64,000 nucleotides of DNA from a bacterium (GCA_965261595.1 CBDHDG010000005.1:1-64000), one strand, 5' to 3'. Positions 5,982-58,092 are shown, numbered from the stretch's first letter. Notes: a model not told the origin generated them from the letters alone. Program-made: numbers and translations.

Positions 5982-5991
5982 GGAGGCTGAC

Positions 5992-11961: not shown

Positions 11962-12626
11962 GTCTTCCACGGTTTCCCTCGTCATTAACAGACTCTGGTG
12001 GAAGTTGTATATGCAAGAGGAATAATGGAACATCACCAATTTTCTCTGCATACCTGCGCAAGGCCTTTATAGACACTTGTTGATTGTCTCCGGGGATCTT
12101 TTCCTGAACTCCTGCAAAAGTCTCCAGAAACCCTGGAATCCCCCCCCCAATTACTTGACAAATCTTTGACGATAATGGCATCCTTGAGCTGGCTTAACAT
12201 AACCTTGATCCTTGGATCTTTTGTTGCCTGATGAGGATCTATGGAAAACCACAAACAAGCCGCCTGAGACAATGATAGATTTTTGTGTTTTTGGTATAAT
12301 GAAACATCTACCTCTATGGGTTCTTCACCTGGAGCTACAGTATCTGTGTGGATGCACTCATCGATCTTCTTGTCTAAACGTTCCACCTCGAGACGAAAAG
12401 GCGCCATTAACAAGTTCCATAGGAATGTTGGAACGATAGCCACCAATATGAATATGATAGCGATCACAATATTATCCGTCATTTCTGAACTAGCCTTTTC
12501 TTCTTCTCCGATATAGCTGAGTAGCAAAATAAATATCGCAGGAACGAGAACCAACACAAGGACGGTTCCAAATGACAACCCAAAACTCTTCCACGTGTCA
12601 ATACACGCTTTCTTAAAGATTTCCAT
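11927..12626 (-). CDS. IS passenger: two-TM membrane protein with soluble C-domain (probable frameshift at poly-C ~12145)
   Basis: ORF 12033-12626 plus overlapping ORF 11927-12181; AT-rich. Confidence 0.6.
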
Positions 12627-14900
12627 GCAACAAAACTACACATGGGATCGGGCTTTGTCAAGGGCATAATTCCGAATCGATCGCGAGATCGTCACCTGCG
12701 CCGAGGCCGCCCCGCGGCTCAACGCGCTCTGGGGGGCCGAGATCGCGAGGGCGTCCGGCATCTTCGGATGGAGACTCTTCCCCGGTGCGGCGACCGAGGC
12801 GCTGGCCCGGGCCGAGCTCATGGCCGCGCTGCCCGTGGCCCACGACTACCTGATCGGCGCCTCCAGGACCGCGGCCGAGATCCTGCGCCAGCAGATGGTC
12901 CTCAACACCCTCCACGGCGCGGGCGAGCAATGGGCCGCGGAGGCAGGCAACGCCGCCGCGCTCAGGTCCTATACCGAAGCCCGGGCCGAGGCCCAGACCG
13001 TCTCGGCCTACCGGGCCATCGGAAGGCAGGCCGAGACCTGGGTCCCGATGCTGCGCATCGTGTTCGAGTGCCTCTACGTGGGCGCCTTCCCCATGGCGGT
13101 GCTGCTCATGCTCACCCCCGCGGGCGGCGGGATCTTCCGGTCCTACTTCGCCGGGATCGTCTGGATCCAGAGCTGGGGGCCGCTCTACGCGATCCTCCAC
13201 CGCATCTCCATGGGCGAGGCCGCCGAGCGCATGAGCGCCGGCGCCCTCATGCCGGACGGCGAGAGCGGCGTATCGCTCGTCGCCCAGGCGGGGATCCGGG
13301 CCGTGGCCTCCGACGTGGCCGTGATGTCGGGCTACCTCTCGATGTCGGTGCCCTTCCTCGCCGCGGCCCTGGCCTACGGGGTGGGCAAGGCGACCATGCT
13401 CGCCACCTCGGTGCTCGCGGTCGGCCAGGACGCGGCCTCCTCGGCCGCCCACGAGGGCACGACGGGCAATATCTCCCTCGCCAACACCCAGGCCGACGTC
13501 CACCGCTTCGCAACGCTCGAGGGCCGCCAGCTCCGCACCTCCATGCACGTCGATACGGACCGCTATACCGGGTTCGCTCCCGAGGGCGCGGCCTTCACCG
13601 TGACTGGAGACGGTACCGCGGTCATGGACGCCGGCTCCGCCACCAGCCGGATCCCGGCGGCGGGCGTCAGACTCTCCGAATCCCTTGCGGTCAGCCACGA
13701 GAGCCGGGCAGGCGCCGCCCGGGAGCAGGCCCGGCACTGGTCGGCCGAGGCCGGCACGGCGCGCACGGCCGTTGCGACCGATTCGGCGGCCATGGTCGAG
13801 CGGTTCTCCCGGGACGTGCACACGGGCCTCGCCCATTCGAGGGGCGTGACGGAAAGCGAGAGCACGCAGGTCCAGGCCCTGGAAAGCCACATGAAACGCC
13901 TGTCCGAGACGGGCGGGATCTCGAAGGAGGAGGCGGCCGTTCTCACGGGCGAGGCCAGGGTGGGAGGGGGGTTCGACTTCATCGTGAAGTTCGGGGCCGA
14001 CGGTTCGGCGAGCTGGCGGGGCCAGACCATCGGCCGGGAAGCCTGGAACCGGATGACCGACTATGCCGAGCAGAACCAAGTGATCGATCACTGGTCCCGG
14101 GTCGCCGATGCCTCCAGGCGCTACTCCACCGCCTCGGGCGAGAGCGAGCTCAAGAGCCTGGAGGAGAGTTTTGGCGCCAACCTGACGCGGATGCGCCGCT
14201 TCGGCGAGCAGGAGGCCCTGAGCCACCGGGAAGCCGAGAGCTGGAGATCTCAGGCGGCCGAGGTGCGAAGCCGGTCCCGGGCCGTCGACCGGGAGCTGGG
14301 CCAGCCCTTCTTCGCCTGGCTGACCGCCCGGCCTGGCGCCGGCGGGCGGGAGATCGGCGTGGGGGGCGCCATGCGGCTCGCCTCGCCCCAGACCCCGGAG
14401 GACGCCGAGGAGCTCCGCGCGCATGCCGCCGCCTTCATCGCGGAGCGCTTCCCGGCGCCCGAGGGGGTGGATCCGGCCTCGGTCCCGGGGCTGGCGGACT
14501 ACGAGCGGAGGAGAGACGGGCTGAAGGAGTATCACGCGGGCGAGACCGAGGCGGCCTGGGGCGACTGGTCGGCCTCGGTGAAAGGTCGCGGACGCGGGGC
14601 CGGGACGCCCGATCCGGGCAAGGTCGAGACCCGGGCAAGGCGCGAAAGCGCCAGGACCGAGCATGATCTGAGGGTAAGGGAGGCGGGACGAGAGGAGCGG
14701 GCCGGGATGACGGACGAGCGCATCGAGCAAGGCCGCGCGAAGGTCGCGGCCGAGGCCGACAAACCCTTCGTCGAGCATGCCACCGAGGCGGTCCCGTTCA
14801 TCGGGAAGTGGCTCGGCGGCAAGCTCTACGGCACCGCCAGGAACGCGGCGCCGGACCCGGGGGAGGGGAAGAAGGACGACCGCTGACGCGACGGTCCCTT

Positions 14901-15302
14901 CTACGGGGACCGGGTGCTCGGGCCATGATCGCGAAGGCGCCCGTGGTCGTGGAGGTGCCGGTCCTCGACGTCGCGGAGCCAGGCGTAGCGGCCGGTCTTG
15001 GTCGCCCAGTCGAACCGGTCGCCGCCCTCTTCCGGGAGCTGGTACCGACCGAAGGCCGACCAGTCGCGATGGCGGAATCCCCGCCACAGGGCGCACGCGA
15101 GGGCGGCAAGGGCGGTCCAGATCATTGCCCAGAACCAAATCCCCCCGAGCAAGCGGACATTGGTCCCGGTGGCCACGGAAAAGACGGTGACGGCGAGGAC
15201 GAGGGCGAGCCCGCCGAGGACGAAGGCGCGGGCGCGGCAGCTGGGCCTGACGGGGACATGGGGCACATGGGGGATGCTACTGGATGGATTGGGATCGGTC
15301 AT
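14901..15302 (-). CDS. Small membrane protein convergent with traG, candidate entry exclusion protein
   Basis: Two hydrophobic segments; position matches eex of SXT/IncC elements. Confidence 0.5.
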   Translation of the reverse strand: MTDPNPSSSIPHVPHVPVRPSCRARAFVLGGLALVLAVTVFSVATGTNVRLLGGIWFWAMIWTALAALACALWRGFRHRDWSAFGRYQLPEEGGDRFDWATKTGRYAWLRDVEDRHLHDHGRLRDHGPSTRSP

Positions 15303-15468
15303 GGATGGTTCCTCCGGGGTTGGGGTTCAAGGCGTCTCGGGCGCCAGCCTCTCCGGTCCCGGCGTCCCGCGCCCAGGCTCCGGCCCGCCTCGACCTCCCG
15401 CCCGGCGCATTGCAACGGAATGGCGCCAAGACCGCCGCTATCCACACCACCTTGAACGGGAGAACCCG

Positions 15469-17574
15469 ATGATGTTCGGCAACGCAACGCTCAGGGGCGG
15501 CCAGACCCTGGCCCACGACGTCCATATGTGGGGCCAGCTGGTCCGCTGGGGGCTTTTGGGCATCGCCCTGACGGTCGTCCTGGTCCCCGCCGTGGCCCTG
15601 TTCCGCACCACGACCGCCCATGAATGGCGCCTCGTCGGAACGGGCACCCTCGCCCAGGTCAAGCTCGCGCTCGGGTATCCACGTCATTCCCTCCAGGCGT
15701 ACGAGTGGCGAGAGGGCCAAAAAACGGCCCTGAGAATCGTGGATATCGCCCAGGACCCCAGGATCGAAAGGATCCGGAAACGCATGCTCCATACCGTCTA
15801 CGCCAGGGCGTGGCTCGGCCTCTGGATCGGAGTTGGGGGCGCGGTCCTCTGTACGGTCCTGTTCTCGGTCCTGGGAAGGCGCCTGGACCGTGCCCAACGG
15901 GTCCGCGGCGCGGAAATGACGACGGCCCGGGAGCTGAGAAGGCGCGTGCAGCCCGTGTCCGCGCGCCTGGCCGAGGCCCTGTTCCCCGCCGCGCGCCGAG
16001 CCTCCTGCCGCATCGCCGGGATCCCCTGGCCCAGGCGCGCCGAGACCCAGCACACCATCGTCTCCGGCACCACCGGCTCGGGCAAGACCGTCCTGATCTC
16101 CGACCTCGTTGCCCGGCTCCGCGCCCGGGGCGAGCGCTGCATCCTCTACGACAAGATGGGGAGCTATACCCGCTCCTTCTTCGATCCCTCTTGTGATGTG
16201 CTGATGAACCCCCTGGACGCCCGGGCGCCCCGCTGGTCCCCCTTCTTCGAGGCGAGGACGCCCCGGGACTTCGACATGATGGCCGCCGCCCTCATCCCCC
16301 AGCAGAAGGACACGGTGGACCCCTTCTGGGTCACGGCCGCGAGGCAACTGTTTTCCAACGGCGCGGGCGTGCTCTGGAAGAAGGGCGTGACCGAGAACCG
16401 GGTGCTGGTCGACCACCTGCTCAAGACCGACCTGACGGCCCTGGCCCGGGCCATGGAGGGCACGGTGGCCCAGTCCATCGTGGACCCCGAAAACCCCAAG
16501 ACCGCGCTCTCCGTCCGGGCCATGCTGACCGCGCACCTGGGAGCGCTCGAGTTCCTGCCCGATACGGGAGAGCCCTTCTCGATCCGGGACTGGGTGGGCC
16601 AAGAGGACGGGACCGAGTTCCTGTTCCTGACCTCCCGGGGCGACCAGCACGCGAGCCTGAGAGGGCTCATCTCCACCTGGCTCGAGATCGCGGTGAACGC
16701 GCTCCTTTCCCTCCATCAGGACGATGCGCGCCGGGTCTGGGTAGTCCTGGACGAGCTGCCCACCCTTCACCAGGTGCCGAGCCTCCAGCCGGGGCTGGCC
16801 GAGTCCCGCCAGTTCGGAGGGTGCTTCGTGCTCGGGATCCAGGTGATCTCGGCCCTGCGCGACCTCTACGGAAAGAACGGGGCGGAGACGATATCCGGGC
16901 TGTGCGGCACCCGGGTGGTCCTGGCCGCGCCCGACCAGGAGACGGCCCGGTGGTCGGCCGAGAGCCTGGGGCGGGGCGAGGTGGAGGAATACGCCCACGG
17001 CATGAGCTACGGGGCCAGCGTGCTGCGGGACGGGGTCTCGCTCACCCAGCGCCGGGAGATGCGCTCCCTGGCCCTGCCGTCGGAGATCATGCGGCTCGAG
17101 AACCTGAAAGGCTATCTGAAGTTCCCCGGGCCCTGGCCCGTGGCCCGGATCGGGCTCGACTACGTCAAGAGGCCCAAGGCGGCCGAACGGTTCGTGCCGA
17201 GAGAGGAAGGGCCTTCGGAGCAGGGCGGTTGGGTCTCCGATGTGACCGCGGCCGATTCCGGAAGCGGGCGCGACACCGATGCCCCGGCGCCGGACGATGC
17301 CGGGAACGAAAGCGAGCATGGCGATACGGGCGCGGCGTGCTCAGCGGCGGAATGGACCGGCGATCAACCCGAGCTCGGTCTCGAGCCGGCCCCGGCCGAA
17401 TGCCGCGCGGTGGAAGCGGAAGGAGCGGAAATGCCCGAGGTCCCGGTTGCCGGTTCCGGCGGCCGGGATTCCGCTCTTTCCGGGCAACGGGAAGACCCCG
17501 CGGCCGATCCGGATGAACCCGAGGACAGCGGCGCCGGCGGCGCGGACGAGCGCTGTCCGGTCGACTGGCTGTGA
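15469..17574 (+). CDS. traD: Type IV coupling protein TraD
   Basis: Two N-terminal TMs, GTTGSGKT, VLDELPTL, acidic tail. Confidence 0.95.
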   Translation: MMFGNATLRGGQTLAHDVHMWGQLVRWGLLGIALTVVLVPAVALFRTTTAHEWRLVGTGTLAQVKLALGYPRHSLQAYEWREGQKTALRIVDIAQDPRIERIRKRMLHTVYARAWLGLWIGVGGAVLCTVLFSVLGRRLDRAQRVRGAEMTTARELRRRVQPVSARLAEALFPAARRASCRIAGIPWPRRAETQHTIVSGTTGSGKTVLISDLVARLRARGERCILYDKMGSYTRSFFDPSCDVLMNPLDARAPRWSPFFEARTPRDFDMMAAALIPQQKDTVDPFWVTAARQLFSNGAGVLWKKGVTENRVLVDHLLKTDLTALARAMEGTVAQSIVDPENPKTALSVRAMLTAHLGALEFLPDTGEPFSIRDWVGQEDGTEFLFLTSRGDQHASLRGLISTWLEIAVNALLSLHQDDARRVWVVLDELPTLHQVPSLQPGLAESRQFGGCFVLGIQVISALRDLYGKNGAETISGLCGTRVVLAAPDQETARWSAESLGRGEVEEYAHGMSYGASVLRDGVSLTQRREMRSLALPSEIMRLENLKGYLKFPGPWPVARIGLDYVKRPKAAERFVPREEGPSEQGGWVSDVTAADSGSGRDTDAPAPDDAGNESEHGDTGAACSAAEWTGDQPELGLEPAPAECRAVEAEGAEMPEVPVAGSGGRDSALSGQREDPAADPDEPEDSGAGGADERCPVDWL

Positions 17575-20555
17575 TGGTCGTCTCGATCGGCGCCGTCGCG
17601 TCCTCTGCCCAGGGCATCTCCTATTACGAGAGGGACGGCTACTACGCGAAGGACGACCCGGCCCACAGGGACGCGAGCGCCTGGACCGGCAAGGGCGCGG
17701 AGGACCTCGGCCTCTCCGGCCCGGTCGATCCGGACCTCTTCAAGGCGGTGCTGGAGGGCAAGGTACTCGACGGGACCGGACGGCAACTCGGACGCGGGGG
17801 ACCCGATGGGGCCCTGCAGCACCGGCCCGGGCGTGACCTGACCTTCTCGGCTCCCAAATCCGTCTCGCTGGCGGCGCTGGTCGGCGGCGACGCCCGCATC
17901 GTCGAGGCCCATGACCGGGCGGTCAAGCGCTCGCTGGCCTGGATCGAGGGCAACGCCGCCGAGACCCGGTTGAAGGACCCGGAGACCAGCCGCATGGTCC
18001 GCGCCGGGGACCAGAAGACGGTGGCCGCGACCTTCCGGCACGACGCCTCGCGCAATCTGGATCCCCAGCTCCACACCCACGCGGTCCTCGCCAACATGGT
18101 CCAGGGCGGGGACGGCAAGTGGCGGACCATGGCCAACGAGGCGCTCTACCGCCGCCAGAAGTTGATTGGCTTGATCTACCGGAGCGAGCTCGCGCGGGAG
18201 TTGGGCAAGCTCGGTTACGGAATCGAGAAGAGCCATGCCGACGGACGCTTCGAGATCGCCGGGGTCCCGAGGAAGGTCATCGAGGCGTTCTCGACCCGGC
18301 GGGCCGAGATCGAGGCGGCGGTGGCCGAGCGGGGCATGAGCGGCACCGCCGAGAATCAGCGCCTCGCCGAGCGCGCGGCGCTGATGACCCGGGCCCACAA
18401 GCGCGAGGTCGACAAGGCGGCGCTCAGGGCAAGCTGGGAGAAGCAGGCCGCCGGGCTGGGGTTCGACGCGCGGGCGCTCGCAGCCGAGGCCATGGCGAGG
18501 GACTCCGGCCGGGAGAACGCTCCCGCACGGGATGTCGATCCCGCTTCGGCGAATGCTGCCGGGTCTCCCACCTCCATCGCGGAAACCGACCCAACGCGGC
18601 GGGAACCGGCAACGAAGGAGCCGGCGGCCGAGGCCGCGGAATGGGCGATGGCGCATCTCGCCGAACGCGAGGCGGTGTTCTCGCGCGCCGATCTGCTCGC
18701 CGCCGCGCTGGCCTGGCAACCGGGCGCCGTGTCCGTCGAGGCGGCGGAGAAGGCGTTGGGCGATCTCGAAGGTCAGGGACGGCTCCATGCCGCGCCGGCA
18801 TTGCATGCGGGCGACGGCATGACCACCGACAAGGCCCTAGTCGACGAGCGCGAGACGATCGGGCTGATGCAGGACGGACAGGACAGAAGCCCGGTGGTGA
18901 TGCGAAGCTGGATGGTGAGCGCGCGGCTACACAAGGGACCGCTGACCGAGGGGCAGAAGCAGGCCGTCAAGCTGATCCTGTCTTCGAAGGACCGCGTCGT
19001 CGGCGTGCAGGGCTATGCCGGCACCGGCAAGACCACCATGCTGCGGCGCGCCAACGCGCTCGCGGGCAAGAGCGGCTACCGCATGATGGGACTGGCGCCG
19101 TCGGCCTCGGCGGTGAAGACGCTGGCGACCGAAGCCGGGATCGAGAGCGAGACCCTGCAACGCTTCCTCGCGCGGAACGCCGGGGTCGCCGAAGGGCGTT
19201 TGACGAAGAAGGGCGAGAAGGAGATGCGCGCGGCGTTCGCGAAGACCGTGCTCGTGGTGGACGAGGGATCCCTCGCCTCCACGGTCCAGGCCCGCGATCT
19301 GCTCAGGATCGCGAATGCGCTCCGCGTCCCCCGCGTAGTCCTGGTCGGCGACGAGAAACAGCTCGACGCTGTCGACGCCGGAAAACCCTTTGCGCAGTTG
19401 CAGCGGGCAGGCATGAAGACGGCGGTGATGGACGAGATCCTGCGCCAGCGCGACCCGGAGCTGAAAGCGGCCGTGGAGGCGAGCCTCGCCGGCGAGATCG
19501 GCAAGGCCTTCGAGAAGCTCGGCCCCAACGTGGCCGAGGTCCAGGCCGACAACATCGCGGGCGCGGTGGCGGCGCGCTGGCTCAAGCTGTCCCCCGAGGC
19601 GAGAGAGAACACCGGCGTCATGGCGCCGAGCCATGAGCTTCGCCGGGAGATCAACGGCCATATCCGGGAGCGCCTCGCGCGCGACGGCAGGATCCACGGC
19701 CCCGCCTTCACGGGTGAGCGGCTGGTCTCCCACGGCTACACGAACGCCGAGAAGTCGCTCGCCGCCAACTACGCCGAGGGCGATATCGTCGCCTTCCACC
19801 GCCCCTACAAGACGCTCGGAATCGACAAGGGCGACGAGCGGCGGGTCGCCGACGTGGATCACAAGAGCCATACGGTGATACTCGAAGGCGGGGACGGCAG
19901 GACCGTTCCGTGGAAGCCAGGCCGGATCGCCGGGCGGACAGGCGGCGCCGAGGTCTACCGGGCCGATGGGATCGAGCTTCGCGCCGGAGACCGCATCCGC
20001 TGGACCCGCAACGACAAGGGCCTCGGCCTCGTCAACAGCCGCACCGCCGAGGTCGCGAGCGTGAAGGACGGCCGTGTGGCCTTCCGTCTGGAGGACGGGC
20101 GCATGCTCGACATGAAGGCGGGCGATCCCCAGCTGCGCCATCTCGACCACGCCTGGGCCTCGACCGTGCATGCCTTCCAGGGCCGGACGGTGGACAACGT
20201 GATCGCCGCGATGGAGGCCAATCACCCCCACCTCACCACGCAGAAGAGCTTCTATGTGGAGATCAGCCGCGCCCGCGACCGGGCCGAGTTGGTGACGGAC
20301 GATGCGGCGCGGCTGCGCGAGCAACTCGAAACCGCCACCGGCGAGCGGATCTCGGCACTAGAGGGGATCGGAGAGGCGGCGCGGGACGCGCCGGCAAAGG
20401 GCATGGAAGCGGGTGAGAGGGCCGGACGATCGCCGGATCGAGGCGTGGAATCCGGTGCCGGGATGGAGCGAGACGGCGGCGGACAGGCGTCGAAGGATCG
20501 GGAACCTGCCCAGCCCGTGCGCGAAAAATCCACCGGGATGGACTTCGGCCTGTAG
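17574..20555 (+). CDS. traI: MOB-F relaxase-helicase (TrwC/TraI)
   Basis: YYERDGYY, DLTFSAPKS, HDASRNLDPQLHTH, GYAGTGKT, YVEISR motifs. Confidence 0.95.
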   Translation: MVVSIGAVASSAQGISYYERDGYYAKDDPAHRDASAWTGKGAEDLGLSGPVDPDLFKAVLEGKVLDGTGRQLGRGGPDGALQHRPGRDLTFSAPKSVSLAALVGGDARIVEAHDRAVKRSLAWIEGNAAETRLKDPETSRMVRAGDQKTVAATFRHDASRNLDPQLHTHAVLANMVQGGDGKWRTMANEALYRRQKLIGLIYRSELARELGKLGYGIEKSHADGRFEIAGVPRKVIEAFSTRRAEIEAAVAERGMSGTAENQRLAERAALMTRAHKREVDKAALRASWEKQAAGLGFDARALAAEAMARDSGRENAPARDVDPASANAAGSPTSIAETDPTRREPATKEPAAEAAEWAMAHLAEREAVFSRADLLAAALAWQPGAVSVEAAEKALGDLEGQGRLHAAPALHAGDGMTTDKALVDERETIGLMQDGQDRSPVVMRSWMVSARLHKGPLTEGQKQAVKLILSSKDRVVGVQGYAGTGKTTMLRRANALAGKSGYRMMGLAPSASAVKTLATEAGIESETLQRFLARNAGVAEGRLTKKGEKEMRAAFAKTVLVVDEGSLASTVQARDLLRIANALRVPRVVLVGDEKQLDAVDAGKPFAQLQRAGMKTAVMDEILRQRDPELKAAVEASLAGEIGKAFEKLGPNVAEVQADNIAGAVAARWLKLSPEARENTGVMAPSHELRREINGHIRERLARDGRIHGPAFTGERLVSHGYTNAEKSLAANYAEGDIVAFHRPYKTLGIDKGDERRVADVDHKSHTVILEGGDGRTVPWKPGRIAGRTGGAEVYRADGIELRAGDRIRWTRNDKGLGLVNSRTAEVASVKDGRVAFRLEDGRMLDMKAGDPQLRHLDHAWASTVHAFQGRTVDNVIAAMEANHPHLTTQKSFYVEISRARDRAELVTDDAARLREQLETATGERISALEGIGEAARDAPAKGMEAGERAGRSPDRGVESGAGMERDGGGQASKDREPAQPVREKSTGMDFGL

Positions 20556-20924
20556 TGTGGAGAAACTAACCGCCGCCGGGCATCTCCGCGCTTGCGACGA
20601 CTCGTTTTTCTTCTACACATCAGACGCATCTTCGATGCTATGAGCGAGTCCGGTCCATCCCAAGGGACCGATTTCTACTTTGTAACAGTCGATTAGGCCG
20701 TTTTCGGCCTCACACCGCGCCCCCCTGCGCGGGACGAGGCAAGCCGGCCGAAATGGACTTCGGCTTGTAAGCGAGGAACCGGTGTTGCCGTATCCTTTGG
20801 CGGGCTGTATCGTCATGATATTGAGCGGGGTTGTGGTATTTTCGGCGAGCGGTGGAGGGTTTTGGTTCATGGCGGCGGTGACGCGAGCCCACTTTAGAGA
20901 GGTGGTCATCCGGGAGGCCGGCTT

Positions 20925-21020
20925 GCCGCGCGACAAGGCGTCGCGGACTGGCCACAATCCCGCGACCGGCATGGAGGCGCCGATATCGCCGCACCGTGTG
21001 GTGACGTTCCGGCCGTTGCT
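20925..21020 (+). pseudogene. IHF/HU C-terminal remnant
   Basis: [29 protein letters not shown] matches the IHF-alpha arm; N-terminal helices absent. Confidence 0.65.
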
Positions 21021-21198
21021 CTGGCCGAGGGATTGGGAAAATAGCGGAATGGCGGGCACCGGCCGGAACGTCGGCCTGGAGTATTTCCGTCCGCCGGTTC
21101 GGGCGTCCATCTGCAACGAAGTCCAGGAATTTGTGAAGGCCGGCGCCAAAAGAGACAGCTGATCGAGTTCCGCATGGGCTTGATCGGAAACACAGATT

Positions 21199-21693
21199 GT
21201 GGCATACATGAATCTGGTGGAGGAGGCTCGGCCAGTGAGTGAGTCGTCCAGTTTCAAAATATCCGTTTGGAGCGCTTTTGCGCCCCAAACCGATCTGGCT
21301 ATCGATACAGGTTCAGGTGAGCCGCAGGTTCGTGTGGTGGCCAAACAAAGTTCCGGCCTCCATAAGGAAGTATTCGGCTGGCGCATGTCCGAAGATCTTT
21401 TTGCCGGAATCGCCGACGAAAGTGACCGAGACAAACTGAAAGCGGCTTTATTCGACAAGATGGCAATCGACATCGATCCGAATAAACGCTCAATCGATTC
21501 CCTCAAGTCTTTTGTCGATGTGGCTAACGAGATTCTTGACGCCAACCGTGTCGAATGGATCGGAAGCCAAAACCCTTCTGGAGACGATGACGAGAAAGGA
21601 CGCCTGAATCCGCTACTCGCGCTGGTCAATCACCTATCATGGCTGATCGGCATGTTCAAGGACATGCCTAATACATCGATCAGTGTTCGATGA
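21199..21693 (+). CDS. Hypothetical 164-aa protein, first gene of putative defence operon
   Basis: Intact ORF; ATGA overlap with next gene. Confidence 0.75.
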   Translation: MAYMNLVEEARPVSESSSFKISVWSAFAPQTDLAIDTGSGEPQVRVVAKQSSGLHKEVFGWRMSEDLFAGIADESDRDKLKAALFDKMAIDIDPNKRSIDSLKSFVDVANEILDANRVEWIGSQNPSGDDDEKGRLNPLLALVNHLSWLIGMFKDMPNTSISVR

Positions 21694-23765
21694 TGGCCAA
21701 GAGTCTTACGCCGCCCGCCGATACCGTTGAAGCGGTTGCAGGCCTGTTCGAGCCAAACTCCATTTGCAACCTATCGATACGGGAAGACCGTGCGTTCGGT
21801 CCCTCCGAGTTTCTTTGTCTCGGATCGATAAGACTTTTCCCGGAGGATAACGGTTTAGAGCACCGTGCTCGGGCCGTCCGGCGCGGGGCGTTTGAGTGGC
21901 GCGCGCCCGATGTCGCGGCGGTCAATAAAGAAATTCAGGAAGTCCTCGGCATTAAAGACCTGAAAGAAGAAGCAGGTATCCGGGCAAAGGACAAGGTCCT
22001 GAGAATTCTCGACATGTTCGGCGCCGTTCCGGTCCGTCTTGGTCTGAGTCATCCGATTTTCGATCCCCATGCTCTTGAGGACATGCCGTTTCGCCGACCG
22101 GTAACGGTCGTAAGTGACACGTCGGGCGTCTTGCAGGGCGGCCTCGGCTTTATATCGCGATATTTGCATCCGGCCGCCCGTATCAAGGTACCGGCCGTGA
22201 CGCATATGGAGATTGTTAATTTCGCCGACAGATTTCTTAAAAATAGACGTGCGAGTAAAGTGAAGCGGCCGGACCTCATGATAGATCACCTCAATAGCCA
22301 AGCCGGCCAGAGAGTTCTTGTGCAACTTGAACTGCGTTCGGACGTCGAATTGGAAAGAACCTTCCTGTTAGGCGATCCTTTGAGGGGTTCGTTTCAACAT
22401 GATCAGGACCGGGAACTCAGTCAACTGAATCTCAGTATCCCGATCAAGTCGTACTCAGACCGACTGATTCTGGAAGCCACACGGCAACATCGGTCACAGG
22501 CGGATTCCAGTCATCGGGTCATGTTGCTCACGGGCGACCAAGGTCTAGCGCGCATGGCCATGGCGGAGGGAATAAACTCGATATATTTCCACAGCGCGGG
22601 AGCCGATGCGTTCTTCGGCAAGCGCTTCACGGGAGCGAATTTCCATCCGTTTTCCGAGGAACTTCACACTACGAGTATTCCGGAAATTCTATGGGAACTC
22701 GCCACCATTTCCGGCTGTGCGCGGCTGTCCGCGGAAGATCCCGAACGAAATCTAACGGTTCATGCAATCGGCGAAGACCTTGCATGGGCTCCCTATCATT
22801 CGCAAGACGATCTTCTCTGGGTTGAATTTCCTGACGGTCCAGCGACTTCGTGTGGGCCGGTGGTCCGGAGCGCCGAAGCGACGCTCTCACCGGAGGCCAA
22901 GAGCCACGCCGTCGCGGAAGCGCCCAGCGGAAGCCGAGCCCGCCCGCCCGCCCGTCGGGGACCATTGGGCGAGGGCGGGGCCGCGAAGGCGGCCCTCTAC
23001 AAGTTCAATCTCGGTCGTCTATTCGCCCTGATCGATAAATTGGAAATCCGTCAACAGCTTCCTGTCAACGAAGTTATGACATCGCTTGGCGTTCGCACCG
23101 CAAGCGGACTGAGCGACTATCGTCGTTTCCTGGAGTCGGGCAAAACGATATTCGTGGACGAAGGAAGCTGGTCGGCGGCCCCTCCTCTGAGTCGTATCGC
23201 GGTTGTTCTCCAGAACGCCGATGTCGACGAATTGCGAAAAGAGCTTCGCTTGTTTCCGTCATATGTAGAACTGGAGCGGGTGTTGTCACAGGAAGCTGTC
23301 GGGGGTGCGTTCGATGCGACAACTTTCGGGCGGGCAGCGTATACGTATACGGCCTTGGCGGAGCTTGCGGAGCTTGGTGCATCCGTTCAGGGAAAGGGCT
23401 TTTTCGTCACCCCACGAGATCCCGGCGATGATGAGTTCGCGAAGATCGCCGTATCCGCATATGATCGGTTGGAGCTAGGCGGCAACTGGGTCGCGACGGG
23501 ACGCTGGCTTGAAGAACTGATCGTGAATGATGGAATCCACCCCGTCGTTGCGCGGCGACGGCTGCAATCCGCCGCCAACCATGGCTTGGTCAAGCGCGTT
23601 ACCGAAGGATCGACTACGGAAACCGGGCATGACCTTCAGACACTGAGGACGCTGGCGTTGAAGGACGGTGTCCCGTATGTGAAGGTGGAGTATCTTTACA
23701 GAGGTGATTTCCTCATTCCGGGGAAAGCCAGTTCGAGTTTGAAAATCGAAATGATTGAGACATGA
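21690..23765 (+). CDS. PIN-domain ribonuclease-like protein with long C-terminal (possibly winged-helix) region
   Basis: VVSDTS, VPAVTHME, SDRLILE, LLTGDQGL give the PIN acidic tetrad. Confidence 0.75.
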   Translation: MMAKSLTPPADTVEAVAGLFEPNSICNLSIREDRAFGPSEFLCLGSIRLFPEDNGLEHRARAVRRGAFEWRAPDVAAVNKEIQEVLGIKDLKEEAGIRAKDKVLRILDMFGAVPVRLGLSHPIFDPHALEDMPFRRPVTVVSDTSGVLQGGLGFISRYLHPAARIKVPAVTHMEIVNFADRFLKNRRASKVKRPDLMIDHLNSQAGQRVLVQLELRSDVELERTFLLGDPLRGSFQHDQDRELSQLNLSIPIKSYSDRLILEATRQHRSQADSSHRVMLLTGDQGLARMAMAEGINSIYFHSAGADAFFGKRFTGANFHPFSEELHTTSIPEILWELATISGCARLSAEDPERNLTVHAIGEDLAWAPYHSQDDLLWVEFPDGPATSCGPVVRSAEATLSPEAKSHAVAEAPSGSRARPPARRGPLGEGGAAKAALYKFNLGRLFALIDKLEIRQQLPVNEVMTSLGVRTASGLSDYRRFLESGKTIFVDEGSWSAAPPLSRIAVVLQNADVDELRKELRLFPSYVELERVLSQEAVGGAFDATTFGRAAYTYTALAELAELGASVQGKGFFVTPRDPGDDEFAKIAVSAYDRLELGGNWVATGRWLEELIVNDGIHPVVARRRLQSAANHGLVKRVTEGSTTETGHDLQTLRTLALKDGVPYVKVEYLYRGDFLIPGKASSSLKIEMIET

Positions 23766-24862
23766 GCCTCCGCGAAAAACTGGGGAGTAAGCAGGGAACC
23801 AGCCGCGATTCTCTTCTGTCGGACTTCGGCGTTCTTTCCAACCCCTTTCCGACTGCGAATCAGACCCTTGATAATCCTCATTATCCTGTACCGAAGGATG
23901 ATGAGGCAGAAGAAAGAATTATTACGTTCCTGCGGGAGATGAAATCCGAAGTCCTGGTTGTTCTCGGCACCCAAGGGGTCGGAAAAACCAATTTCCTCAA
24001 TTACCTAGACGGGCAAATCCAAGAAGTAAAAGACACACTGGACGGCTACTACATTGTCCGGTATATGGCTGATCCGGAACCGTCCTTCGACGCGACGGTT
24101 CGCATGATCTTTTTGGAATTCGGGATTCCACATCTTAAAAAAATCGCGGAATCTCTATCCAATTCACGCGATGCGTTGTCTACCGTTAGATCCTATGACC
24201 TGAGAGAGGCCCTGTCGGCCCTTTCCGATAATCCTGACGATAACGAACTTCTCGGGCTTTGCCAACAGTGGTTGTTCGGCTCGCGTCTTCTGAAGGCTCA
24301 CAGGAACGGCCTCGGTGTCAACTTTAGGCTGGACACAGTGGAATCACGCACGGCAGCATTACGAGACTATATCATGCTCAGCGCGGAACTGGGATTATTG
24401 AAGGGCATATTCCTTTTGCTTGACGAGTTAGAAAAGCAGGCGGGCGTGCTCGGTCCCACAGCGGTGGTCCGCTACCTGTCGGGTTTACGGGCGATCATGG
24501 ACGCACTTCCGAAGCATCTGTTTATGATCATAGCTGTTACGCCGGACGCGATGCGCAGGTATTCAAGCGCCCTTCCCGCCTTTCGGAGCAGGTTGGAAAA
24601 TCAGATTGAGTTAGAGCCTCTTGCCAATTCCAAAGAGGCAATGGGTTTGGCGAAATTCTATCTGGAGAAAGCGAAGTCGGCGGTTCCCGTGAAGCAAAGG
24701 AAATCGGGCTCGCGAGATTTGGTGACCGAGCCAGAGATGTTAAATATTTTTAACGATTCAATGAAGTTATCGAAACGCCGCGGCGACGACGGTGTTCGGC
24801 AGCGAGAATTTCTGAACGGGCTACACGACATCGCGGAAAAGAAAATTCAAAAACGTGTGTGA
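23762..24862 (+). CDS. P-loop AAA-type ATPase
   Basis: FG..SNPF, Walker A GTQGVGKT, Walker B LLLDELE, AFRSRL; ATGA overlap with the PIN gene. Confidence 0.85.
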   Translation: MSLREKLGSKQGTSRDSLLSDFGVLSNPFPTANQTLDNPHYPVPKDDEAEERIITFLREMKSEVLVVLGTQGVGKTNFLNYLDGQIQEVKDTLDGYYIVRYMADPEPSFDATVRMIFLEFGIPHLKKIAESLSNSRDALSTVRSYDLREALSALSDNPDDNELLGLCQQWLFGSRLLKAHRNGLGVNFRLDTVESRTAALRDYIMLSAELGLLKGIFLLLDELEKQAGVLGPTAVVRYLSGLRAIMDALPKHLFMIIAVTPDAMRRYSSALPAFRSRLENQIELEPLANSKEAMGLAKFYLEKAKSAVPVKQRKSGSRDLVTEPEMLNIFNDSMKLSKRRGDDGVRQREFLNGLHDIAEKKIQKRV

Positions 24863-25022
24863 CCGGGTTGACAGGGACGGCTCCGTCATCGATTCAGGAT
24901 GGCTGCGCGCGCCCCTCACGCATCAGTAATACCAAACTGAACTGGCAATGCACGGCAGGTTTATGCGGTTGCGTTGGGGGCGGTAGCCCAACAGCGGTAC
25001 ATAATGGAGGCGATCCGGTCGA

Positions 25023-25591
25023 TCAGCCGATCCCGGGATCGGGGCGATCGGGCGCCAATTCGTCCAGCCTGGGGCCGAAGACACGCTTGAAATCCAGCAG
25101 TTTGTCGATCATCCAATCTTCTATTTCTTTCAGCGTCTCCGAGTCGCCGTCAATGCTACCTTGGCGCACGACCGCAATGCGGCTCGCCCTGTGATCGTCC
25201 AGGCGTTCCCAATTCAAGCGATTCCGAGAGTTCGGATTCGATGGATTCTTTTCGTTCCATGAGGCGGTCGAACAGAATCTTGTTCCAATCCCTATCGGTG
25301 TTATCGATATAAACTTCAATCCTGGCTCTTTTCTCTTGAACGAAAGTAGCGCCGTATTGAACGCGTTGCGCATGCCCCGCCGAGAAGTAGTACCAACTTT
25401 GAAGCTGCGCCTTGCGCACATTCGTGAATCCTCGCTCTCTGAGCGCGTCCATGATTTCCTGCAAAAAACGCTTGGTAGCGAAGGTTCTTATCCGAGTCCC
25501 CAAGCCAAGGAGTGAAATCGGCGGCCTCGTGCGGCCAAGCCTCACGGAGGTCGGCCTTTTCGATGCGACCAAGTCCCGCCGTTTCCGTCAT
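25023..25591 (-). pseudogene. DUF4268-domain protein remnant (internal deletion, frameshifts)
   Basis: LREAWPHEAADFTPWL N-motif abuts C-terminal IEVYID...WERLD..RASRI in different frames. Confidence 0.7.
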
Positions 25592-25665
25592 TGTTCTCTC
25601 CCTCCCTTTCGGTTTTCCATCGAACGCATGCGGTTCAGTAGCCGGGTGTTTCTCGACGGCCGGCT

Positions 25666-26049
25666 TCATTTCGAGGCATCTTCCAGGATCGTCGCCTGGG
25701 TCTCCCGGGCCAATTTTATCATCTCGTCGAGTTCGTCGCCGCGCCCTTCGCGGAGCATTTCATCGCGTTTGAGGGTCGCAACGATGTACGTGCTTCGATA
25801 GATGCGCTCGATCAGCGCGACGATTCCTAGCGGCATCACGGTGGGGTCCGCGATGTTCTTGTTCCGGGCGAGGTTCAGAGCGGCATCGCGGACAAACTCG
25901 GCAGCCGGGATTTTATGCTCTGCTGCCGCCGTTTTGACCCGTTCCCACTCGGAATCCGAGAACCGGATTGCCCGCGGCGTGCGCGTGTCGGTCTGCTTTT
26001 CGTCTGGAGTCGCGCCGGTTTCAGCGTCAGTTCGCTCGTTTTCGCTCAT
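25666..26049 (-). CDS. Ribbon-helix-helix relaxosome accessory protein (MobC/TrwA-like)
   Basis: RAIRFSDSEWERVKTAA...AEFVRDAA; adjacent to oriT. Confidence 0.7.
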   Translation of the reverse strand: MSENERTDAETGATPDEKQTDTRTPRAIRFSDSEWERVKTAAAEHKIPAAEFVRDAALNLARNKNIADPTVMPLGIVALIERIYRSTYIVATLKRDEMLREGRGDELDEMIKLARETQATILEDASK

Positions 26050-26142
26050 GGTTTTCTCTCTCCGGGTCGCGGTTTTCGTTCGGAAATGCACAGATTTCCC
26101 CAGGGAACGGAAGCGGTTCCGTGCTCCACAGCGTCTAATCCC

Positions 26143-26265
26143 CGTATATCGGTGCAGCATACACGGCCGTCACAACTGCGACATGAGCGTATACCGGTCG
26201 TATGCCGGTCAGAAACAAAATACAGCAATATCAATGTTTTAGACTCGTATATCGGTACGGCATAC
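26143..26265. repeat. Four 11-bp repeats CGTATRYCGGT next to oriT
   Basis: Copies at 26143, 26188, 26199, 26246. Confidence 0.75.
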
Positions 26266-26629: not shown

Positions 26630-27553
26630 TCAGGCGGCGACGCACTGGACCGGGATACCGAGCTTGCGCGCCTTGTCGACCAGATTGTCGGTGATGCCCG
26701 AGCCCGGGAACGCGATGACGCCCTTGGGGAGGAGATCGAGCAGCTCGTCATTGCGCCGGAAGGGCGCCGCGCGTCCGTGTGCGTCCCAGTTGGGCTTGCA
26801 GACGATCTGGTGGACGCCGTTGCGGTCCGCCCACTTGGCCGCGATCTTCTCGACGCCGGGACCACCGCCGTGGACCAGGACCACATCGTCGTACTTGGCC
26901 TTGAGCTTCTCGAGGGTGCGGATGATGGCGCCTGCGTCGCCGGTCTGCTTGCCGCCTGCCACCGCGACGAGCGTTCCCTGGGGCAGGAGCGCCTTGTTCT
27001 CGCGGTCCCTGCGGGCACGCTGGAAGTCGCGGGCGTCGATCATGGCCGAAGTGAGCTTGCCGGTCTGGGAGGTGTGGGACCCGCGCCGGGGCCGCCAGAG
27101 GTCTCCGGTCTCGACCCGGTAGGCCTCGGCCGCTGCATCTCTGAGTTGCTCGAAGGCGTCCCGCCGGTCCGTGAGGTTCTTGGTTCGGTCGGTGACGAGT
27201 TCGAGCTCTCGGGACCGGATCTCCGAGCCGTCCTGCTCTCGCTGGAGGTCGCGCATGTCGGGGAGGAGCCTGTCGGCCGCGCGGTCGAGGCGTTGGGTCT
27301 GGGCGTCGAGCATGTTGACGAATCCCCAGAGCAGGCTCTCGCGCTCGTCGGCGAGTTGCGTTCCGTCGGGCGCGACGCCGTGTGCCATGATGCGGAAGGC
27401 TTCCGTGACGGCGGAGAGGGCGTTCTCCGGGTCCCAGACCTCCCGGTTGTCGAATTCGTCGCGCTCCGGGGTTGCTCCGAAGAGAGCCGCCTGGTCGCAG
27501 ACGGTGGCGGTGACGGACTGGTTCTGTTCTGAGATGTTGTCGATATCGTGCAT
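26630..27553 (-). CDS. DUF2493 / YspA-like SLOG protein
   Basis: VAVAGG, LVHGGGPGVE, APFRRND, VIAFPGSG motifs. Confidence 0.85.
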   Translation of the reverse strand: MHDIDNISEQNQSVTATVCDQAALFGATPERDEFDNREVWDPENALSAVTEAFRIMAHGVAPDGTQLADERESLLWGFVNMLDAQTQRLDRAADRLLPDMRDLQREQDGSEIRSRELELVTDRTKNLTDRRDAFEQLRDAAAEAYRVETGDLWRPRRGSHTSQTGKLTSAMIDARDFQRARRDRENKALLPQGTLVAVAGGKQTGDAGAIIRTLEKLKAKYDDVVLVHGGGPGVEKIAAKWADRNGVHQIVCKPNWDAHGRAAPFRRNDELLDLLPKGVIAFPGSGITDNLVDKARKLGIPVQCVAA

Positions 27554-28289
27554 GATGCTCTCCTTCCGGGTAGAGGGTTGAGAACCGTTACGGTTCGTTG
27601 TGCGGAGAGAGTCTCCGAACGTGATGGTTGAGTGGCCCACGCGCGCGCAGCAAAGTCACCGTGGCCGCAAGGCCTGGCGCGGCGAGGGGCGCGAGTGGTG
27701 CGGGCGCACAAGCGACCGCAGGGAGCGCGGAGCCTCGGTCGCGTTTCTCGCCACGCCTAGGCGCGCAGCGCCGTAGCCTTGCGAGCCAGGGCCGGAACGG
27801 AGCGGAGCGTAGTGTAGGACCCGCGGAGCGGGTTGGCGCAGCGAGCACGTGTGGGACAATGGGCCATCACGTCGAGAGGGATATTGTTTGCCACTGTCCC
27901 GGACGCCCTGTGCGGTTCCGGGATTGAGACCCGGGTCTCGGGCGCCGGCCCGGCAAGCGTAGCGCGCAGCGAGCGCCAGCGAGCGGAGGCGATAGGGATA
28001 GAAGCGCAAATCGGAGCGGAGCGGAGATTGCAGCGGGGAGCCCGGCCCGAAGGGATCGCCCGAAGACGGCATGGCCCGTCACCGCAACGGACGCGTATCG
28101 ACGAGTCGCTCCGCAACCTCGCAGGCGAGATTGCCATGGTGGTAGACCCTCGACTCGTACGGGCGATGCTCCTCAAGGTAACGGATTGCATTTCGGTTCT
28201 CCTTCCGTGTTGCTGGTGCCCGGGGCCCTCTCTCTCCCTCCTCGCGGCGTTCGCCCCTCTCGCGCTTCACTCTCCCCTCCGTTCCGCCA

Positions 28290-28480: not shown

Positions 28481-29497
28481 TCACTCCCTCTCTCCGACCC
28501 GCTGCGGCGCGGGGAACAGGGCGGCGAGCCGAAGAGCCAGGGCCCGGGGTCCGAGAGTAACCAGATCGTCGTTGAAGTCGCCGTATTCGGAGACGATGAC
28601 GTGGGCGGCGACGCCCGCCCGCGCGCAGCGCCGGGCGAGGCGTTGGGCGGCCCGTTCGCCCTCGGAATCGTTGTCGCGGGCGATGACGAGCCGTTTGAGC
28701 CCGCCAGGTGGAGCGAAGGCGCTGAGGCTTCCGGCCGAGAGCGCGGCCGCCGAAATGACCCCGGGCGCCGCGGTGACGATCGACAGCACCGTCTCGATGC
28801 CTTCGCCGACGAGCAGCGAAGCGCCGTCGGCGGGCTTGCCGAAGCACACGGCGCGTCCGTGGATGCGGCCGAGCGCCTTGCGCGGGGCCGCATCCACGGA
28901 CGCCTTGGCGGGCAAGCGCGAATCGAGCCAGGTGCGCTGCACGCCTTGGATGGCGCCGTCGTCGCCGGTCACGGCGGCGACCAGCGCCGGAAAACGGCGC
29001 AGGGAAGAGCCTTCGCGATAGCGAAGCTCGGGATGGAAGCGCAATGCCGGGAACCGGCAGCGCGCGAGTCCGCGGGCGTGGAGATAGGCCTCGGCATGGG
29101 TGCCGCCGATGGCGCGGCAACCCCGCCAGAGGCGGCGGGCCGCTTCTGTTGCGTCGTAGCCCTCGCCCGGCGCCGGCGGAGCCGGCAGGGCGAGGGAGGC
29201 GCGGGCCTCGGCGAGCGCCGCGCGAAGCGTCGGCGCGCCCGAGCGATGCCGGACGAGATCGAGCAGGTCGCCGTGCTCTCCGGTGGCCGCGTCGGTCCAC
29301 TTCCCGGGGACGCCGGGACCGTGCAGGCGGACGAAGAGCGAGCGGCCGCGAGCGCCTTCGAGATCACCGGCGACCCAGTACCGGCCCTGCTTTTTGCCCT
29401 GGGGCAGGTAACGCCGGCAGACGGCCTCGGCGCACGCGCCGAGCGCGGCGGCGATGTCGGCGGCGGGAGATACGGAACGGGACGATGGGGGCGGCAT
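28481..29497 (-). CDS. Toprim-domain primase-like protein
   Basis: GKWTDAATGEHGDLLD, VGEGIET, IARDND motifs. Confidence 0.85.
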   Translation of the reverse strand: MPPPSSRSVSPAADIAAALGACAEAVCRRYLPQGKKQGRYWVAGDLEGARGRSLFVRLHGPGVPGKWTDAATGEHGDLLDLVRHRSGAPTLRAALAEARASLALPAPPAPGEGYDATEAARRLWRGCRAIGGTHAEAYLHARGLARCRFPALRFHPELRYREGSSLRRFPALVAAVTGDDGAIQGVQRTWLDSRLPAKASVDAAPRKALGRIHGRAVCFGKPADGASLLVGEGIETVLSIVTAAPGVISAAALSAGSLSAFAPPGGLKRLVIARDNDSEGERAAQRLARRCARAGVAAHVIVSEYGDFNDDLVTLGPRALALRLAALFPAPQRVGERE

Positions 29498-29691
29498 AAC
29501 GGGCCTCCTCTGGATGGACGGGGAACGCCCGATACCGGCCGGCCTCCGCCTCCGGCCGGCGCCGGAGGGCGAAGCGCCGCGCGCAGCGCTGGCGCGAGGC
29601 CCGAACGGGCGCTGTCTCGGAACGGGCAGCAAGAAAAAGGGCCGACGCGCGAAGCGCCGGCCCAGGTAGAGGGAGGAAACGGAATGCGCGC

Positions 29692-30117
29692 TCAGAACGG
29701 GATGTCGTCCATGGGCGCTTCGGCGGACGGCGTCTCCGCCTCCGCGACCGGCGCGCCGTTGCCGTTGGGCTTGTCGAGGAACTGCACGCGCCCGCCCGGA
29801 ACCAGCAGGATCTCGGTGGAGAACCGGTCGGAGTCCTCGTCGTCCTTCTTCCAGCGACGGGTCTGCAGCTTGCCCGCCACATAGACCAGCCGGCCCTTCG
29901 TCGCGTGCTTCTCGAACATGTCCACCAGCCCGGGCTGGAAGGTCACCACCCGGTGCCACTCGGTCTTGTCGACCCGGTCTCCGGTCTGCTTGTCGATGTA
30001 GCCCTCGTCGGTGGCGATCGACAGGTTCGCGACGCGTCCGCCGCTGGTGAGGTGGTTGACGGTGACGTCGGCGCCGAGGCGGCCGATCACTTCAGCGCGA
30101 TTGAGTCCGAAGGCCAT
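29692..30117 (-). CDS. ssb: Single-stranded DNA-binding protein
   Basis: NRAEVIGRLG, TEWHRVV, C-terminal DDIPF. Confidence 0.95.
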   Translation of the reverse strand: MAFGLNRAEVIGRLGADVTVNHLTSGGRVANLSIATDEGYIDKQTGDRVDKTEWHRVVTFQPGLVDMFEKHATKGRLVYVAGKLQTRRWKKDDEDSDRFSTEILLVPGGRVQFLDKPNGNGAPVAEAETPSAEAPMDDIPF

Positions 30118-57812: not shown

Positions 57813-57897
57813 TTTCGGTAAACTGATTGGATGGAGATTTTCTTCTTCAGACCCGTGCTTTTGCGTCCCGATCTCGCGACCGGTTTGCCGTTATCGG
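57813..57897 (-). ncRNA. c-di-GMP-I (GEMM) riboswitch
   Basis: GGCAAA-CCGGTC-GCGA-GATCGG-GACGCAAA...GGGTCT...TTACCGAA upstream of cpaE; P3 3' arm imperfect. Confidence 0.75.
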
Positions 57898-58092
57898 ACA
57901 TGAGTGACTCGGACGGCGTTTCCGGGGGGGAGAGGGGAGGGGGCAACCCGGATTTTTTCCCGCCGGAATGCGGTGACTCTTCACGCCGTCTTCTTTCAAT
58001 CCTTCATCGGCGAATCGGCCCGAAGGCTTTAGCGGACAACAGAAAGTTTCACCGGGCCTTTCGCCCGTGACCCGCCGAATGGGCGAGGCCGC

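Follow-up and report, generated by a model that had tools for sequence, protein, structure and literature searches.

We analysed a 64,000-nucleotide stretch of bacterial DNA (GCA_965261595.1, CBDHDG010000005.1:1-64000; hereafter the window) in which three genes, here called A, B and C, follow one another on the plus strand directly 3′ of the conjugation gene traI, encoding a small protein, a predicted PIN nuclease and a predicted AAA+ ATPase. A listing of open reading frames (ORFs) bears out the preliminary description of this triad as three intact, translationally coupled ORFs with two ATGA overlaps, and returns all coordinates as first reported:

21199-21693, plus strand: gene A, 164 residues, GTG start
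21690-23765, plus strand: gene B, 691 residues, ATG start
23762-24862, plus strand: gene C, 366 residues, ATG start

The A/B and B/C junctions each have a 4-nucleotide overlap, which must read ATGA because an ATG start codon and a stop codon beginning with TG allow no other sequence.

Architecture of the three proteins

Judged by its sequence motifs, the predicted product of gene C is an AAA+ ATPase of the BrxC/BrxD family, within the ORC/Cdc6 clade; the AAA+ P-loop motifs recognized in the preliminary description stand, and its generic AAA label gives way to this narrower assignment. C matches Pfam PF10923 (BrxC_BrxD, formerly DUF2791) at 27.9 bits (cut-off 22.2) over residues 137-289, the match spanning only profile positions 160-323 of 414, and the same family is precomputed on most C homologues among the 120 matches listed. 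Invariant in 33/33 aligned sequences are G23, N27, P28 and P30 of an N-terminal motif, FGVLSNPFP (in general form FGxxxNPFP), the Walker A residues Q71, G72, G74, K75 and T76, the Walker B residues D221 and E222, residues T260, R266 and R277, and an insert motif, FRLDTVExxT. The FG..NPF, Walker A/B and Arg-finger-like motifs first noted in C are thereby all accounted for, with R266/R277 for the arginine. Matches to other families are confined to the P-loop, both in PADLOC (mad8, 5e-4; DpdH, 0.015; PtuA, 0.02) and in a profile search of PDB sequences, where they are weak (NB-ARC, 0.013; DnaI, 0.04).

An AlphaFold2 (AF2) model of full-length B (predicted local distance difference test, pLDDT, 85.3) falls into five parts:

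21690-22049, plus strand: residues 1-120, N-terminal alpha/beta domain (AF2)
22092-22589, plus strand: residues 135-300, PIN nuclease domain, PIN_4/SMG6-like type
22590-22838, plus strand: residues 301-383, small beta-rich domain, strands at 312-358 in the AF2 model
22839-22994, plus strand: residues 384-435, predicted disordered linker, variable in length and poorly conserved
22995-23765, plus strand: residues 436-691, three winged-helix-like units (AF2)

The acidic tetrad of the PIN domain, D143, E174, D257 and D283, which the preliminary description had called complete, is invariant in 47/47 aligned homologues; PIN_4 matches 40 of these 47 family members at E ≤ 0.1 (best 1.2e-5), several B homologues carry a precomputed PF13638 assignment, and the Pfam PIN family PF01850 matches five of the 47 weakly. 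Foldseek comparison with the PDB, in which PIN matches overall range from E 2e-3 to 8e-2, places the domain with Nmd4 and with its counterparts in SMG6 and EST1A (probability 1.0, E 2e-3 to 1e-2), with further matches to Dis3 (probability ~1.0) and to the PIN-type RNase P HARP (probability 0.82-0.97, E 1.3e-2 to 8e-2). B is thus modelled as carrying a PIN fold with all four acidic active-site residues, and the invariance of this tetrad in B and of Walker A and Walker B in C argues that both proteins are probably catalytically competent.

The C-terminus of roughly 390 residues that had been left unexplained resolves into the beta domain, the disordered linker and the three winged-helix-like units. 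G315, P320, W335 and E336 are invariant in the beta domain; the linker has pLDDT below 50 at 384-431 and a gap-rich alignment. Residues 436-691 show the DSSP pattern helix-strand-helix-helix-strand-strand three times at a pLDDT of ~90 and carry the conserved motifs YRRFL, EGSTT and LYRGDxLIPGK. This part of B has no Pfam family match; its Foldseek matches are weak and fall on proteins with tandem winged helices, RPC62 and UFL1 among them (E 0.05-0.08), and the ESM Atlas offers leads only, none scoring above 0.80, toward clusters of double winged-helix, FokI recognition-domain and DpdG-like kind. From the modelled fold, the winged-helix-like units are presumed to bind nucleic acid.

Beyond the PIN domain and these C-terminal parts, B has the 120-residue N-terminal domain, a beta-alpha-beta block with pLDDT 82-96 in which G66 is invariant and E32, F36 and W70 are nearly so. 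The top Foldseek match of B is SiRe_0806 (9jxx), a protein that binds cyclic tetra-adenylate (cA4), with E 1e-4 over 289 columns and a template-modelling score of only 0.22/0.35; a CARF-like ligand sensor in the N-terminal domain of B is accordingly no more than a model-based lead, for which a literature search returned no supporting find. A profile of B had no match among PDB sequences, and a look for fused or longer forms of B found none, a weak negative.

Protein A has no match in Pfam, PADLOC, NCBIfam or PHROGs, the last two of which gave nothing meaningful for B or C either. Its AF2 model (pLDDT 87.0) has a four-strand beta sheet and three helices; the C-terminal strand is conserved, with the motif PGxSVSxR, and W24, R97, W148 and P157 are invariant in a 48-sequence alignment. 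Foldseek found nothing below E=1 for A in the PDB and no real match in a viral structure library (best E=0.07), and the best ESM Atlas score, 0.89 to unnamed viral clusters, lies below the level of a meaningful match. A profile search of 1.84 billion representatives recovered 259 clusters at E ≤ 0.001; among the best 150 of the 259, relatives are mostly 100-200 residues long and nearly all reach the profile's final position, and no recurrent longer or fused form was found.

Modelled as a complex on our own unpaired alignments, A and full-length B reached an interaction prediction score from aligned errors (ipSAE) of 0.84 in three runs (best control, 0.20), a value attained by 116/157 solved complexes and 2/215 mismatched pairs. 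The runs share at least 95% of contacts, with partner pLDDT 70-72. Residues 58-64 and 113-156 of A contact residues 50-69 (50-52, 61-69), 119-130 and 312-327 of B, so that both the N-terminal domain and the beta domain of B take part; the interface includes the conserved W61, W148 and F153 of A and, in B, the invariant P122, D125, G315 and P320 and the nearly invariant L119 and F321. The catalytic residues of B are not among the contacts. The model supports binding of A to the N-terminal half of B at a site clear of the catalytic residues, and A looks like a structural adaptor that binds B, as opposed to an active-site plug.

Conservation, mobility and neighbours of the triad

We scanned one genome per species, 185,579 species in all, with two peptide motifs of B, obtaining 83 confirmed stretches of which 80 loci (given L numbers below where they need telling apart) were kept. 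They come from at least 12 phyla, their hosts including Alpha-, Beta-, Gamma- and Deltaproteobacteria, Acidobacteriota, Binatia, Spirochaetia, Cyanobacteria, Nitrospinae, Gemmatimonadales, Lentisphaerales, Riflebacteria and Armatimonadota. By tblastn, 73 of the 80 loci have A upstream of B and 77 have C downstream, the order A-B-C being kept throughout; a profile of A adds three loci, bringing A to 76/80. In the four loci that lack A (L037, L041, L070, L075), B is truncated N-terminally or the contig ends, and of the three that lack C, one has a truncated B (L029) and two stop at a contig end (L074, L080). Conservation of the triad, a check proposed in the preliminary description, therefore amounts to strict co-occurrence, with every miss at a contig end or a truncated B, and the stop/start overlaps between the genes are conserved across loci as well.

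No fourth gene accompanies the three among 1330 clustered flank ORFs, outside the Nostoc synteny of closely related loci. A fourth coupled ORF in the window (24859-25194, its GTG overlapping the stop codon of C) was rejected: it has no family match, and no downstream gene is conserved. Pairwise distances among the A, B and C proteins of 65 loci correlate at r 0.96-0.98, with 0/999 permutations as high, which suggests that the genes have not swapped partners, a pattern that shared ancestry alone would also produce; the correlation shows co-inheritance and says nothing on function. In some copies (L013, L029, L060, L077, L078) B or C is truncated or spread over more than one frame, L077 being broken in all three genes, and these may reflect either true decay or long-read assembly errors in metagenome-assembled genomes (MAGs). 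Most related loci are chromosomal, and tblastn with B found no match in 72,556 plasmids and 50,697 phage records, and megablast of the cassette found none in plasmids.

The triad is horizontally mobile, inherited and transferred as one unit. In blastn, window positions 21040-25047 align with positions 9350-13341 of L001 at 89.7% identity over 4011 nucleotides, between flanks that are unrelated, which indicates that ~4 kb moved together, comprising a leader of 160 nucleotides, the three genes and a tail of 185 nucleotides:

21040-21198, plus strand: cassette leader, conserved relative to L001, presumed promoter and 5′ untranslated region
24863-25047, plus strand: cassette tail, conserved downstream of C, ending at the right limit of L001 similarity

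At the left edge, similarity to L001 begins at ~21040 and extends more weakly back to ~20995. Spanning this limit is a 17-nucleotide inverted repeat (21003-21019 and 21056-21072; 94% complementary, 36-nucleotide loop), and the resulting hairpin (21003-21072) may act as a tra operon terminator or as a site of recombination. On the plus strand of the leader, a scan for consensus promoters detected no sigma-70-like site, and consensus promoters and terminators did not outnumber those in shuffled sequence; Rfam and tRNA scans had no match inside or beside the cassette. Between the window and L001, its closest relative, the ratio of nonsynonymous to synonymous substitution rates (dN/dS) is 0.30 for A, 0.37 for B and 0.19 for C. 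The triad is under purifying selection, and these ratios, together with hundreds of homologues of each protein, mark A, B and C as real genes and not chance ORFs.

Neighbouring genes were compared with PADLOC within 6 kb of the triad at 53 loci, using 331 ORFs of at least 120 residues (the longest ORFs, crudely called). Left out were 27 loci: 21 Nostocales-like ones, represented by L045, the near-duplicates L020 and L028, and L029, L068, L074 and L077. Within this distance, 19/53 loci (4/17, 7/20 and 8/16 in three batches) have clear defence families, answering the call in the preliminary description for a check on defence-island neighbours:

L002: SspH, SspD
L015: TmtA, PDC-S35 TIR
L016: LmuB
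L017: type II methyltransferase
L023: PDC-S47
L025: control protein and methyltransferase
L030: PD-Lambda-2_B
L032: type IIG enzyme
L033: HmaB
L037: PDC-S01
L039: methyltransferase and PD-T4-6
L042: DpdF
L043: type I restriction endonuclease (REase)
L044: HmaA-like helicase
L064: HmaC, PDC-M55ABC
L066: type II restriction-modification
L069: DrmC, DrmB
L072: DrmMI / type IIG
L073: type IV REase

Extended flanks show how closely the triad can be embedded in such clusters. In L002 it is flanked by SspH on one side and SspD/C/B on the other; in L044 HmaB and an HmaA-like helicase immediately precede it, with HEC-01A further out; in L064 HmaB and HmaC come before it and PDC-M55ABC after; and in L069 it lies immediately before the DISARM genes DrmC/B/A. 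Two ORFs of 191 and 694 residues (L002 9716-12372, minus strand), without Pfam or PADLOC match, stand between the triad and SspD in L002 and may be another module embedded in the Ssp cluster.

Defence neighbours are ambiguous in four further loci (L022, L024, L067, L078). Several PADLOC matches were set aside as unrelated to defence: mad3/mad8 in L004 and L067 as ABC transporter ATPases, PDC-M51B in L009 as a thymidylate kinase, PDC-S68/RecD in L010 as a TraI helicase, a match in L024 as a group II intron-type reverse transcriptase, capP/RmrA in L022 as ImmA-like, and mad8/DndH in L078 as an FtsK/HerA-type ATPase. Pfam matches in the first 17 loci place mobile-element genes near the triad, namely transposases, a resolvase and LexA-like/ImuB genes. 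In L010, from a MAG labelled Acidoferrales, a TrwC relaxase-helicase, apparently in two pieces (5489-8797), lies directly upstream of the triad; the relaxase is thus placed as in the window, yet the two B proteins are only ~45% identical.

Surroundings in the window

The surroundings of the triad in the window look like a degenerate F-type conjugative element, of which the following parts were recognized:

upstream of the triad: genes for TraC, TraN, TraF and TraH (family scan of the window)
10187-10876: traG remnant, a 229-residue TraG_N fragment, traG being apparently interrupted
11071-11961: IS1595-family transposase, after the TraG_N fragment
14998-17574: coupling protein, upstream of traI
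17571-20555, plus strand: traI, intact, with TrwC relaxase and helicase domains; the triad lies directly 3′
25023-25669, minus strand: DUF4268-family gene, broken over at least three reading frames
25666-26160, minus strand: NikA-like accessory gene (family scan)
26630-27640, minus strand: YspA/SLOG-domain protein, beyond the NikA-like gene
28481-29959, minus strand: DUF7146 and Toprim primase-like protein, beyond the NikA-like gene

Measured in 1-kb steps, GC content is 0.52-0.57 across 21001-25000 against 0.69-0.72 across 13001-20000, in keeping with the earlier remark that the triad (52-57%) is more AT-rich than the tra genes (~70%). The preliminary description had set the triad between traI and oriT: traI is indeed directly upstream and a NikA-like gene lies at 25666-26160, but oriT itself was not located. 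It had also seen pseudogenes on both sides, which holds downstream, where the DUF4268 gene is split; upstream, traI is intact and the 640 nucleotides separating it from A contain no recognisable gene. Within this gap the last 22 nucleotides of traI (20533-20554, including the stop codon) recur at 20748-20769 with 86% identity, 215 nucleotides downstream, and this repetition of the traI 3′ end suggests a scar of insertion or rearrangement between traI and the cassette.

On the other side, fragments of the DUF4268 gene match the single-gene PADLOC candidate PDC-S11 (profile positions 3-31 and 178-264); on sequence grounds this broken gene is a putative decayed second defence-type gene adjoining the triad. 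The YspA/SLOG and Toprim primase-like genes may belong to the leading region of the conjugative element. Many transposases lie downstream of the triad, among them IS1595, DDE_Tnp_1_4 and Mutator-family members at 36.6-43.7 kb of the window. Apart from the cassette, a low-GC stretch (0.52-0.54) lies at the apparently interrupted traG (10187-13000), and a c-di-GMP-I riboswitch aptamer at 57814-57899 on the minus strand (44.6 bits; gathering score 35) is the sole Rfam match in the window.

A candidate defence system and its alternatives

The triad matches no named system in PADLOC-DB v2.0.0 (2023), in line with the preliminary description, which could assign its gene order to none: A and B match no family there at E ≤ 1, and C has only generic P-loop matches. 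Full-text literature searches yielded no description of the triad, a recent one being possible. Neither a match to a known system nor homologues that fail to co-occur, the computable outcomes that the preliminary description had named as speaking against it, were found.

We consider it rather probable that the triad is a self-contained mobile cassette encoding a nuclease-ATPase machine that protects its host, or the conjugative element carrying it, from phages or other invading DNA, a reading drawn from its recurrence inside or beside known defence systems. In the mechanism that we propose, C, as an ORC/Cdc6-clade ATPase, would bind nucleic acid or an invader cue and serve as an ATP-dependent switch or loader; B would be the effector, its winged-helix-like units holding nucleic acid for the SMG6-type PIN domain to cut; and A would be an adaptor or regulator clamped between the N-terminal domain of B, the linker that precedes the PIN domain and the beta domain that follows it, leaving the active site unplugged. 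RNA would be the likelier substrate of B, since the closest structural relatives are RNases, and cleavage may fall either on the invader directly or on host RNA, as in the abortive infection by an ATPase-gated PIN RNase that the preliminary description proposed. A more specific proposal, which we advance tentatively as possible and somewhat short of probable, is an undescribed stand-alone immune system in which a BrxD-type ATPase, by sensing invading nucleic acid or loading on it, licenses a PIN nuclease with three winged-helix units that an adaptor without detectable relatives checks or assembles, the whole being a 4-kb unit that moves between phyla and has repeatedly been captured in Hma, Ssp and DISARM islands and in conjugative elements.

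The broad design is a familiar one. Septu PtuAB, PARIS AriAB, Gabija and Lamassu are ATPase-plus-nuclease defence systems whose ATPase models PADLOC includes, and the triad shares with them the logic of encoding, within defence islands, a nuclease effector next to an NTPase sensor or switch. By contrast, their ATPases are of ABC, OLD or SMC type whereas C belongs to the ORC/Cdc6 clade, their nucleases are of HNH, TOPRIM or Cap4 type whereas B has a PIN domain, and none has a relative of A. Nor does C resemble the STAND NTPases (Avs/NLR-like): it scores 16.8 bits against NACHT (cut-off 26.7) and 12.3 against NB-ARC (cut-off 23.5) and, at 366 residues, has no repeat region or fused effector. A preprint (bioRxiv 10.64898/2026.10.19.760177) describes a ParA-associated module of a PIN RNase and a HelixGK-domain small protein composed of helices and beta sheet. 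As described there, it resembles the triad in linking a PIN RNase to an NTPase and to a small protein, A being likewise made of beta sheet and helices, and differs in that its NTPase is ParA, of the SIMIBI class, and not AAA+; it is by description only that the two are set apart.

Several points weigh against a defence role. The argument is one of guilt by association: 34 of the 53 loci lack a clear defence neighbour, and metabolic genes surround the triad in several; the count of 19 depends on crude ORF calling in the flanks; and the enrichment in defence neighbours is our informed judgement, formed without a background rate or statistical test. Co-occurrence of the triad is conditional on B, since the loci were found through two B motifs, and B is rare, as the 83 stretches in so many species and its absence from plasmid and phage records attest. 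The PIN_4 match of the window's own B (21.5 bits, residues 154-298) falls 0.4 bits short of the Pfam cut-off of 21.9, the calibration of the A-B model is only rough because the alignments were unpaired and our own, and the link to systems that combine triple winged helix-turn-helix (wHTH) proteins with Orc/Cdc6 ATPases, discussed below, is architectural only, because hhalign found no kinship.

The place of the small gene, first in the operon and coupled to a PIN protein as in VapBC, together with the predicted binding of A to B, would also suit a tripartite toxin-antitoxin or addiction module that stabilizes the conjugative element, with B as PIN toxin, A as antitoxin, C as regulator or chaperone, and phage defence incidental. 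The cassette does sit on a conjugative element here and beside a TrwC relaxase in L010, and it has stayed intact while its neighbours decay. B, however, is a multidomain protein of 691 residues and five modules with a PIN_4/SMG6-type domain, whereas VapC is a single domain of ~130 residues; A has neither a known antitoxin fold nor a recognisable DNA-binding fold, and its predicted contacts miss the catalytic residues; and the triad has an obligatory third gene, the ATPase. Related loci are moreover mostly chromosomal, B occurs in no plasmid record, and defence islands account better for the frequent placement in Ssp, Hma and DISARM clusters, so that we regard an addiction module as unlikely. 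An accessory to conjugation or replication, in which an ORC-like loader would serve a flap or RNA nuclease, or a housekeeping role in RNA turnover, appears very improbable. Replication does employ ORC/Cdc6-clade ATPases and PIN/FEN-like nucleases, and the triad follows traI directly on the same strand in the window and has the same placement in L010; but these are the only 2 of 54 contexts scanned in which a relaxase adjoins it, L073 having only 159 nucleotides of weak similarity to the traI start ~5 kb downstream of the triad, and a patchy, rare distribution over at least 12 phyla with signatures of horizontal gene transfer, a foreign GC content and several decayed copies (the five broken loci noted above) all speak against such a role.

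A defence role might instead be exercised only in the service of a DNA-modification system (Hma, Ssp, DISARM or BREX-like), the triad being a dependent restriction or effector module and not a stand-alone one. C shares with BrxC/PglY and BrxD of BREX (PF10923) its P-loop, its ORC/Cdc6 clade and its defence contexts, but the partner genes differ, a PIN-wHTH protein and A being no components of BREX. C is also shorter than BrxC, which has ~1200 residues, and among the 331 flank ORFs PglZ has no match and PglX/BrxX only weak ones by other methyltransferases. To our knowledge, the role of the BrxC/BrxD ATPases in BREX is still unclear. With SspB-SspC and other triple-wHTH systems the triad shares an architecture of Orc/Cdc6-clade ATPase, about three winged-helix units and nuclease activity, and passages of PMC10853773 pair Orc/Cdc6-clade ATPases with DndG/SspB/FokI-like triple-wHTH proteins in mobile defence neighbourhoods, naming PIN there only among several nucleases encoded near Dnd genes. 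The hhalign probabilities, obtained with L002 templates from single sequences and hence at low sensitivity, are 0.2% for B against SspB and 1.5% for C against SspC, no sign of kinship; the nuclease of the triad is a PIN domain, not an REase or nickase as in Ssp/Dnd; no sulfur-modification genes are conserved with it; and linkage to Ssp occurs at 1/53 loci (L002).

A dependent module would nonetheless be consistent with membership of C in the BrxC/BrxD family, with the presence of Orc/Cdc6 ATPases and multi-wHTH proteins in modification systems, as the same passages describe it, and with the position of the triad within Ssp (L002), beside Hma (L033, L044, L064) and beside DISARM or type IIG genes (L069, L072, L032). 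We think it quite unlikely, however: the triad has no conserved methyltransferase or other modification gene beside it, the modification systems nearby vary from locus to locus, the loci without a clear defence neighbour offer no partner of this kind, transfer between the window and L001 involved the 4-kb unit by itself, and the window holds no modification partner within reach.

Even were it not protective, the triad would still encode a strictly co-inherited, widely transferred predicted three-protein complex, whose small protein has a fold unmatched in the solved and viral structures searched. If it is protective, it would constitute a compact system of three genes whose parts are not seen together in named systems: a BrxD-like ATPase, an SMG6-type PIN nuclease with winged-helix units, and an orphan adaptor. 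Its position at the end of the tra operon would then make this another conjugative element with immune cargo, and PIN_4-type nucleases, best known from eukaryotic RNA decay, would emerge as licensed immune effectors in bacteria. The triad would further provide a small, tractable model for how BrxC/BrxD-family ATPases act.

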